IMG/VR virus record: IMGVR_UViG_2534681673_000007
Location: 1 to 37,562 of that record
DNA: 37,562 nucleotides
DNA from: a virus
Taxonomy: Duplodnaviria; Heunggongvirae; Uroviricota; Caudoviricetes
Direction: 5' to 3' (one strand)
The notes below the pieces were generated by a model. That model was not told where the DNA came from. It was given only the letters and a program-made list of their open reading frames with translations, and ran no database searches. The number at the start of each line of letters is the position of its first letter. The first letter of the stretch is position 1. Shown here piece after piece: positions 1-774 of the stretch. Position numbers and translations under genes: made by a program.

Positions 1-774
1 ATGGATATTACTGAGTTTCCTTCTGGAGTAATTGAACACCTTGGCTGGTATGTATACCGATTGATTGATCCTAGGGACGGAAGCACCTTCTATGTAGGGA
101 AAGGCAAAGGTAACCGCGTATTTGCCCATATGCGCGGTGAAGTGGCAGCGGCTGATGATGACGAGTTACTGAGCAACAAGCTAAAGCAAATCAGAGAAAT
201 AAGATTAGCGGGACTTGAAGTTATCCATGTCATCCATCGACATGGAATGACTGATGAAAAGACGGCGTACGAAGTTGAAGCAGCACTTATTGATGCCTAC
301 CCTGGGTTAACGAATATCATGAATGGTGCTGGCAGCAATGAATTCGGCGCCGCGCATGTCAAAGAATTGATAGCAACATATCAACCCGAAACCATAACAT
401 TTCATCATAAAGCATTAATGATTTCCGTTAACAGAAGTGCAAAGGATTCAGAGCTTTATGATGCGGTTCGATTTAGCTGGCGCATCAATGCCTCGCGCGC
501 CAGTCAAGCAGAAGTCATTCTTGCCACTGTAAGGGGCATCGTTCGAGGGGTTTTTATTGCTGATAAATGGCTCAAATCAACACGTGAAAATTTCCCTACG
601 ATGAAATACTGGGACGAGGATCCTGACTTTGAGGCAACACAAAGTTCTCGCTATGGTTTTGAAGGTCGAGAAGCCCCACCTGAAATAGCAAATCTTTATC
701 TTGGGAAAAAAATACCAGATGAATTAAGAAAAAAAGGAGCTATGTCCCCGGTCCGTTACTCACCTAATTTTTGA
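1..774 (+). CDS. GIY-YIG nuclease family protein (N-terminal GIY-YIG domain, uncharacterised C-terminal half)
   Basis: ORF 1..774. N-terminus WYVYRL...[14 protein letters not shown] fits the GIY/YIG signature, with later conserved-type Glu and Asn (LTNIMNG) positions. Window starts exactly at its ATG, so upstream signals are not visible. Confidence 0.6.

Follow-up and report, generated by a model that had tools for sequence, protein, structure and literature searches.

A GIY-YIG nuclease gene at the end of an Escherichia coli prophage, identified by sequence as the phage-defence enzyme CMoRE (PD-T4-3)

The gene at 1..774 and its product

The DNA analysed here is the IMG/VR virus record IMGVR_UViG_2534681673_000007, a stretch of 37,562 nucleotides that we refer to as the window, and our subject is the nuclease gene with which it begins. 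The open reading frame (ORF) at 1..774 on the plus strand has its start codon, ATG, at base 1 and its stop codon, TGA, at 772-774, and encodes a protein of 257 amino acids (aa). The window does begin at the start codon of the nuclease gene, as had been proposed in a preliminary description made from the letters alone; reading further 5' in matching genomes, the frame meets its first stop 96 nt before this ATG, with no ATG between the two. The features of the gene and of its 3' flank are as follows.

1..774, plus strand: coding sequence of CMoRE / PD-T4-3, assigned from the ORF, PADLOC, PDB and RefSeq WP_000355478.1 (257 aa)
1..336, plus strand: GIY-YIG nuclease domain, with Y17 (49-51), Y19 (55-57), Y31 (91-93), R39 (115-117), E93 (277-279) and N105 (313-315)
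154..165, plus strand: acidic autoinhibitory loop D52-D53-D54-E55, read from the sequence
382..771, plus strand: C-terminal modification-sensing domain (aa ~128-257), assigned from the profile match to 9U75/9U7U, with Y127 (379-381) at its boundary
798..833, plus strand: hairpin followed by TTTT, a candidate weak intrinsic terminator and one copy of an imperfect flanking repeat (RNA fold -14.3 kcal/mol, z=-2.6; the hairpin was not called by the terminator scan)

The protein matches the PADLOC model PD-T4-3 (PDLC04031) from end to end (1-256 of 256 model positions, E=3.3e-140, 464 bits) and PHROG 5356 over its full length. A search of the PDB returned 9U75/9U8D, described as a 'GIY-YIG domain-containing protein' of E. 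coli O157:H7 (E=3.7e-172), and 9U7U/9U7Z, the enzyme of avian pathogenic E. coli (APEC) O1 (E=3.9e-150), and this sequence search found nothing beyond the CMoRE entries. Identity to 9U75, the O157:H7 CMoRE, is 253/257 (98.4%) and identity to 9U7U is 84.8%. The GIY-YIG signature previously noticed in the N-terminal part is borne out by Pfam PF22945, the 'LEM-3-like GIY-YIG domain', which matches aa 28-110 (E=2.4e-14, 54 bits with a cut-off of 27), and the generic GIY-YIG family PF01541 gives a weak match; the RefSeq label of WP_000355478.1 is 'LEM-3-like GIY-YIG domain-containing protein' and an NCBIfam search of the protein returned no family. Judged by these sequence matches the window nuclease is CMoRE (PD-T4-3), a phage-defence enzyme that works as a single gene and has already been characterised in detail, in mechanism and in structure. 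The window adds one more copy of it, in a location typical for the enzyme.

PD-T4-3 originates from a functional selection in the E. coli pangenome and was first found in ECOR68 (Vassallo et al. 2022, PMC9519451), in a paper whose main text does not carry the name PD-T4-3 and mentions only 'a GIY-YIG nuclease', and it was renamed CMoRE by Liu et al., Nat Commun 2026 (PMC12923530). In the latter study CMoRE lowered the plating of T2/T4/T6 by ~5 orders of magnitude, and cells carrying it grew normally at a multiplicity of infection above 1, so the defence is direct and not abortive. The enzyme binds and degrades DNA containing 5-hydroxymethylcytosine (5hmC) or glucosyl-5hmC (5ghmC) and spares DNA with cytosine or 5-methylcytosine (5mC), restricts T4(hmC) and not T4(C), and requires two hmC sites, with cut sites that fit CN11/N9G and leave 2-nt 3' overhangs (PMC12923530). 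In its crystal structures a flexible linker connects the N-terminal GIY-YIG domain with the C-terminal one, to which 5-hydroxymethyl-dCTP (5hm-dCTP) binds; Y127 contacts the 5-hydroxyl of 5hmC in the crystal complex, the base is bound at an edge and not in a pocket, and the depositors report no structural homologue (PMC12923530). Active-site point mutants, including those of Y17, Y19 and Y31, were impaired in defence and abolished for cleavage. The active site is covered by a loop between helices alpha2 and alpha3 with four acidic residues in a row, and the 4A mutant of this loop lost specificity, attacked ordinary DNA and was toxic; the enzyme is a tetramer and the V92S/L96S mutant lost both oligomerisation and defence (PMC12923530). 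An independent modification-dependent result exists for a Capnocytophaga homologue of 48% identity, which at high dose also attacked Mu DNA (PMC12366544).

Every residue named in PMC12923530 is kept in the window protein (Y17, Y19, Y31, the D52-E55 loop, R80, V92, L96 and Y127), in which the GIYxY-YIG motif reads G15-W-Y17-V-Y19 ... Y31-V-G33. In an alignment of 48 homologues with identities down to ~55%, no variation is seen at Y17, Y19, Y31, R39, H43, E93, L96, N105 and Y127, and conservation of V92 is 90% or higher. The GIY-YIG catalytic Arg and Glu are conserved according to PMC12923530, whose text leaves them unnumbered; from their invariance R39 and E93 are presumably this pair, and the catalytic residues on which the GIY-YIG assignment had been made to depend are accordingly both there. 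The loop sequence is DDDE in the window and in APEC O1 and DDDD in O157:H7, and each of the 48 homologues has 3-6 acidic residues in the aligned loop segment (reference residues 46-58). With the O157:H7 and APEC O1 enzymes the window protein shares its length, two-domain architecture, GIYxY-YIG motif, acidic loop, interface residues, Y127 and type of prophage location.

Prophage setting and distribution

Over its first 2.5 kb the window matches E. coli ET791 at 100% identity, and over its first 21 kb it matches related genomes at ~99%. In ET791 and LH09-a yejM is followed by tRNA-Pro(GGG), a frameshifted dinI-like pseudogene, the nuclease gene and an acyltransferase gene, and then, on the opposite strand, by the genes for tail fibre, baseplate, tail and head. 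The DNA upstream of the nuclease gene, which had been out of view when the window alone was read, consists in these genomes of ~300 bp of non-coding sequence, the dead dinI and the tRNA at the chromosomal junction, with no partner gene. The window is a prophage of E. coli at tRNA-Pro/yejM, and the nuclease gene is its last intact gene before the attachment site, past the tail-fibre genes. This is the location proposed in the preliminary description, which had also pointed to the low-GC acyltransferase: the GC content of this neighbour, at 31.9%, is far below the average of the prophage (nuclease gene 43.8%, structural genes 54.7%), and the tail-fibre genes follow it. The rest of the window is a lambdoid-type prophage with a terminase, an HK97-type head and a Mu/e14-like contractile tail, together with a Q-like antiterminator, CII-like and CI-like regulators and an integrase at 35433..36617. 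Megablast of window positions 1-2500 against the phage collection gave no match, and the only known form of the element is that of an E. coli chromosomal prophage; a duplicated 3' end of tRNA-Pro, as the far attachment site, was searched for in the window and not found, and neither was a tRNA gene.

The nuclease gene is common and mobile. It is present at a nucleotide identity of at least 95% in 838 of 5426 complete E. coli genomes (15%), in 823 of them near full length. Its location is in every case a prophage end, at four sites, namely tRNA-Pro/yejM (the window), icd/iraM, which is the e14 site (strain 268.2), argW/intS (strain C3) and the Sakai prophage Sp1. The Sakai (O157:H7) copy, ECs_0285, adjoins pinE and has no acyltransferase beside it, in contrast to the window, with an acyltransferase as neighbour and the prophage at tRNA-Pro, and in C3 the neighbours are a partial helix-turn-helix pseudogene and then a different acyltransferase. 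Such changing neighbours fit a system that consists of one self-sufficient gene, and CMoRE is described as a single component both in PMC12923530 and in the PADLOC model. An accessory gene with this distribution is not a chromosomal housekeeping gene, an origin that would have refuted the preliminary description.

Three functions had been offered for the gene, of which the defence effector stands through the match to CMoRE and the other two fall away for want of the corresponding domains and through the accessory distribution. A free-standing GIY-YIG homing endonuclease of the I-TevI type would spread by cutting a cognate target gene. The full-length match is however to CMoRE and not to a homing enzyme, Pfam found no NUMOD, IENR1 or helix-turn-helix DNA-binding module in the nuclease, the C-terminal half is a modified-base sensor (PMC12923530), and the gene is neither inside nor beside a conserved target gene and instead lies at prophage ends by attachment-site remnants at four chromosomal sites, so that we regard this explanation as extremely improbable. 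We give equally little credence to a DNA-repair nuclease related to UvrC, Cho or LEM-3/Slx1 that acts on damaged or branched host or prophage DNA: in the 257-aa protein no UvrC C-terminal / UvrB-binding region was found with Pfam and no NCBIfam family matched, the gene is absent from most E. coli genomes, the orthologue spares unmodified DNA unless its acidic loop is mutated (PMC12923530), and the published phage phenotypes argue otherwise.

The ends of these prophages carry further traces of their history. Upstream of the nuclease gene in C3 and Sakai, at a distance of 180-240 nt, a stretch of 63 nt in inverse orientation copies the 3' part of tRNA-Ser(CGA) serU exactly (L004 5760-5822; L002 at the same offsets), and the proL-type prophage of the window retains only GGTTTCGAGACCG, 13 nt of this copy (L001, which is ET791, ~11809-11821). 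The serU copy resembles what would remain of the attachment site of an ancestor that integrated at serU and already had the nuclease gene as its outermost one. In the tRNA-Pro (proL)-type prophage an imperfect direct repeat flanks the nuclease gene (L001 11776-11830 and window 797-850), with a hairpin core, AGCACGTTnTTGnATACrACGTG, and a similar tail; either the edge of a cassette or a terminator duplication may account for it. Just 3' of the hairpin, a poly-C tract at window 845-851 varies in length among the window, ET791 and strain 268.2.

Predicted mechanism and expression in the lysogen

We consider it very probable that the window gene is prophage cargo encoding an anti-T-even type IV restriction enzyme with the mechanism of its orthologue. 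For this reading the identity, the intact motifs and the genomic context come from the present analysis, and the biochemistry and structure come from the orthologue literature. The protein would assemble as a tetramer, a dimer of dimers, in which the C-terminal domain would bind 5hmC or glucosyl-hmC and the dimer would read two modified cytosines ~21 bp apart, and with Mg2+ or Mn2+ the N-terminal GIY-YIG domain would then cleave the two strands in the interval between these cytosines (CN11/N9G, 2-nt 3' overhangs). The DDD(D/E) loop over the active site would repel ordinary DNA and host DNA would thereby be spared. Incoming T-even phage DNA, in which cytosine is hydroxymethylated or glucosylated, would be degraded and the infected cell would survive, which would make the defence direct rather than abortive.

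The sequence 5' of the nuclease gene is conserved over ~180 nt in three of the prophage contexts and over ~70 nt in the fourth, and the conserved block holds TTGTGA-17 nt-TAATAT, a candidate promoter ~32 nt before the ATG. On the 3' side ~65 nt beyond the stop codon are conserved in the four contexts, and it is these that form the hairpin at 798..833. A scan for promoters and terminators gave no site above threshold directly upstream or downstream of the gene. We infer that the window allele behaves like its orthologue and that it is expressed from the conserved upstream region of ~180 bp.

Several points weigh against this assessment. The window protein differs from the crystallised O157:H7 protein by four substitutions (E55D, A164V, Q169K and N197H, window residue first), one of which, E55 for D55, is in the autoinhibitory loop, and the same behaviour of this exact allele is expected by extension from the orthologue. 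The promoter candidate scores only 8/12, which is below the threshold of the scan, a clear Shine-Dalgarno sequence is not visible before the ATG, and expression in the native lysogen is presumed; the APEC O1 gene defends only weakly from its native promoter (PMC12923530). As to the substitutions, N197 is the family-invariant state in the alignment of 48 homologues and the crystallised protein is the deviant, E55 also occurs in the active APEC O1 enzyme, and positions 164 and 169 are variable in the family. We see no reason to expect loss of function from these four changes, and the allele is predicted to be active.

The same points bear on the possibility that the copy is silent or inactive in this lysogen, being unexpressed or weakened by its substitutions and contributing nothing to defence. 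The weak promoter-like site, the lack of an obvious ribosome-binding site and the poor defence from the APEC O1 promoter all speak for it, as does the degraded state of some related prophages, for example ET791, where the tape-measure gene is broken by an inversion. On the other side the ORF is intact with all key residues present, the identical protein WP_000355478.1 is retained in several genomes, and conservation across contexts extends to the ~70-180 nt upstream with the promoter-like block. With its native promoter the O157:H7 gene is active in defence (PMC12923530), and deletion of the native gene in strain NILS69 raises the plating of two Tevenvirinae phages (bioRxiv 2024.12.20.629700). 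On balance we find a silent copy very unlikely; poor expression in the lysogen is nevertheless the only live alternative to an active CMoRE.

The sensor domain, related enzymes and other genes of the window

The C-terminal half of the protein had been described as unassigned, which holds for Pfam, where the nuclease and 19 family members searched at E<=10 gave no family on the C-terminal ~130 aa, and no longer holds for structure, since the crystal structures now assign that half. A profile of the C-terminal part alone matches 9U75 residues 133-261 (E=3.5e-59) and found no PDB or Pfam relative other than CMoRE (PDB entries 9U75 and 9U7U). An AlphaFold model built from the 48-sequence alignment had a mean confidence (pLDDT) of 81, compared with 41 for a single-sequence model, and structure searches with it gave a coherent set of weak matches to readers of the PUA superfamily (ASCH, YTH, EVE/THYN1, VcaM4I and McrB-N). 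Independently, the first non-self Foldseek matches include a YTH domain at E=0.06 and VcaM4I at E=0.097, which are weak and were obtained with a model and not a crystal structure as the query; the matches presumably fall on the C-terminal domain. These weak structural matches make a PUA-like fold of the sensor domain possible.

With the sensor-only profile 1859 cluster representatives were found at E<=1e-3, and among the best 150 of these 1859 matches a GIY-YIG domain is present in 46 and many are short fragments. In other matches the sensor is joined to HSDR_N, a PD-(D/E)XK nuclease domain (P0130, nuclease 22-110 and sensor 273-394; likewise P0127), to a PLD/NgoFVII-type nuclease, or to a McrB-like AAA_5 domain (P0217, sensor 5-116 and AAA_5 176-321), and it also occurs inside several proteins of 630-940 aa with no recognised domain. 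Varied nuclease and NTPase partners are the pattern expected of a portable modification reader, and the fusions suggest that there are further uncharacterised, hmC-directed type IV enzymes.

The att-proximal position of the gene has a parallel in e14. In K-12 the order of e14 is baseplate J, ymfQ, stfP, tfaP, tfaE, stfE, pinE, mcrA, icd', and at the same icd/iraM locus in strain 268.2 it is icd', CMoRE, acyltransferase, tail-fibre assembly gene, fibre, stfP, ymfQ, baseplate J. The att-proximal slot of related prophages is thus held in common by mcrA and CMoRE, type IV modification-dependent nucleases that are unrelated to each other (window 1-774; L005 6001-6774; L006 7347-8180). A combined proposal, which we put forward tentatively as plausible if somewhat short of probable, is that the sensor is a very divergent PUA-like reader (EVE/ASCH/YTH-type) and a mobile module shared with other type IV systems (the PD-(D/E)XK HSDR_N, PLD and McrB-like AAA+ fusions), and that e14-like prophages keep an att-proximal 'type IV restriction slot' filled by mcrA or CMoRE. 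The sensor fold, the sensor fusions and the mcrA slot are modest leads and not discoveries.

Enzymes of the PvuRts1I/AbaSI family combine a PD-(D/E)XK (Vsr-like) nuclease with an SRA-like reader. As PMC12923530 describes CMoRE, the likeness to this family extends to specificity for 5hmC/5ghmC, not 5mC or C, and to two modified cytosines ~21-22 bp apart with cleavage between them and 2-nt 3' overhangs. Membership in the family was considered and ruled out, as the window nuclease is a GIY-YIG enzyme with an unrelated reader and the PDB sequence search gave no PvuRts1I/AbaSI match. McrA is an HNH nuclease that targets 5mC/5hmC and not glucosylated hmC. Like CMoRE, McrA (EcoKMcrA) of e14 is a single-protein type IV modification-dependent nuclease whose gene is the last past the tail-fibre/pin genes, by the icd attachment site; it differs in being annotated as type IV methyl-directed and has no sequence relationship to CMoRE. 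Modification-dependent restriction enzymes that join a PUA-superfamily reader to a nuclease (the EVE-HNH enzymes VcaM4I/TspA15I) and the archaeal McrB with its N-terminal YTH/EVE-like domain likewise have no sequence similarity to CMoRE, and the reported edge binding of 5hmC, together with the depositors' statement on structural homologues, sets CMoRE apart from them (PMC12923530).

The genes that follow the nuclease gene are listed below.

1323..2390, plus strand: Acyl_transf_3 acyltransferase (Pfam PF01757, E=1.4e-24; no PADLOC match)
2651..3091, minus strand: tail-fibre assembly gene (Pfam Caudo_TAP, E=2.2e-21)
3067..3993, minus strand: glycine-rich tail-fibre gene (Pfam Gly_rich_2, E=2.9e-13)

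The acyltransferase probably acetylates surface polysaccharide, as lysogenic-conversion enzymes do. It is separate cargo, a neighbour and not a defence partner of the nuclease, since the nuclease gene adjoins pinE or another neighbour in other prophages and the system works as a single gene; window 1-2500 is matched, in any of its parts, by 850 records (845 genomes), and in 43 of them (41 genomes) the acyltransferase accompanies the nuclease gene. The tail-fibre genes at 2651..3993 on the minus strand, which the annotation of matching genomes also supports, mark the end of the prophage structural module. PADLOC on ten other ORFs of the window found no other defence system, the only hit being a partial match to PDC-S22 at 26542..27339 (E=4.9e-6).

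Elsewhere in the structural module, a ~4-kb segment with the sheath, tube, assembly and part of the tape-measure genes is inverted in ET791 and splits the tape-measure gene (L001 21056-25373 compared with window 9055-13153), and the tape-measure ORF at 9055..10890 is intact in the window. The early region contains a full-length match on the minus strand to the Hfq-binding small RNA isrC (28565-28687; Rfam RF01387, 150 bits) and a transposase-like ORF, also on the minus strand (27506-28252; PHROG 157, E=1.1e-101), so that an insertion sequence element or its remnant interrupts the prophage. A DUF968/HNHc_6 protein is encoded at 25545-26540 on the minus strand, and a YfbR-like deoxyribonucleoside 5'-monophosphate phosphatase on the plus strand near the integrase (34002-34601; PHROG 318, E=4e-111). 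Just beyond the integrase, at the opposite end of the prophage, is an unassigned cargo ORF of 283 aa on the minus strand (36711-37562), whose start codon is at the last base of the window; Pfam, PHROG and PADLOC gave no match to it.

The value of identifying the gene at 1..774 as CMoRE lies in correct labelling, as RefSeq still lists a characterised anti-T-even enzyme as 'hypothetical' or 'LEM-3-like GIY-YIG domain-containing protein'. Its carriage, at the identity threshold given above, in ~15% of complete E. coli genomes matters for predicting the sensitivity of strains to T4-like therapeutic phages.
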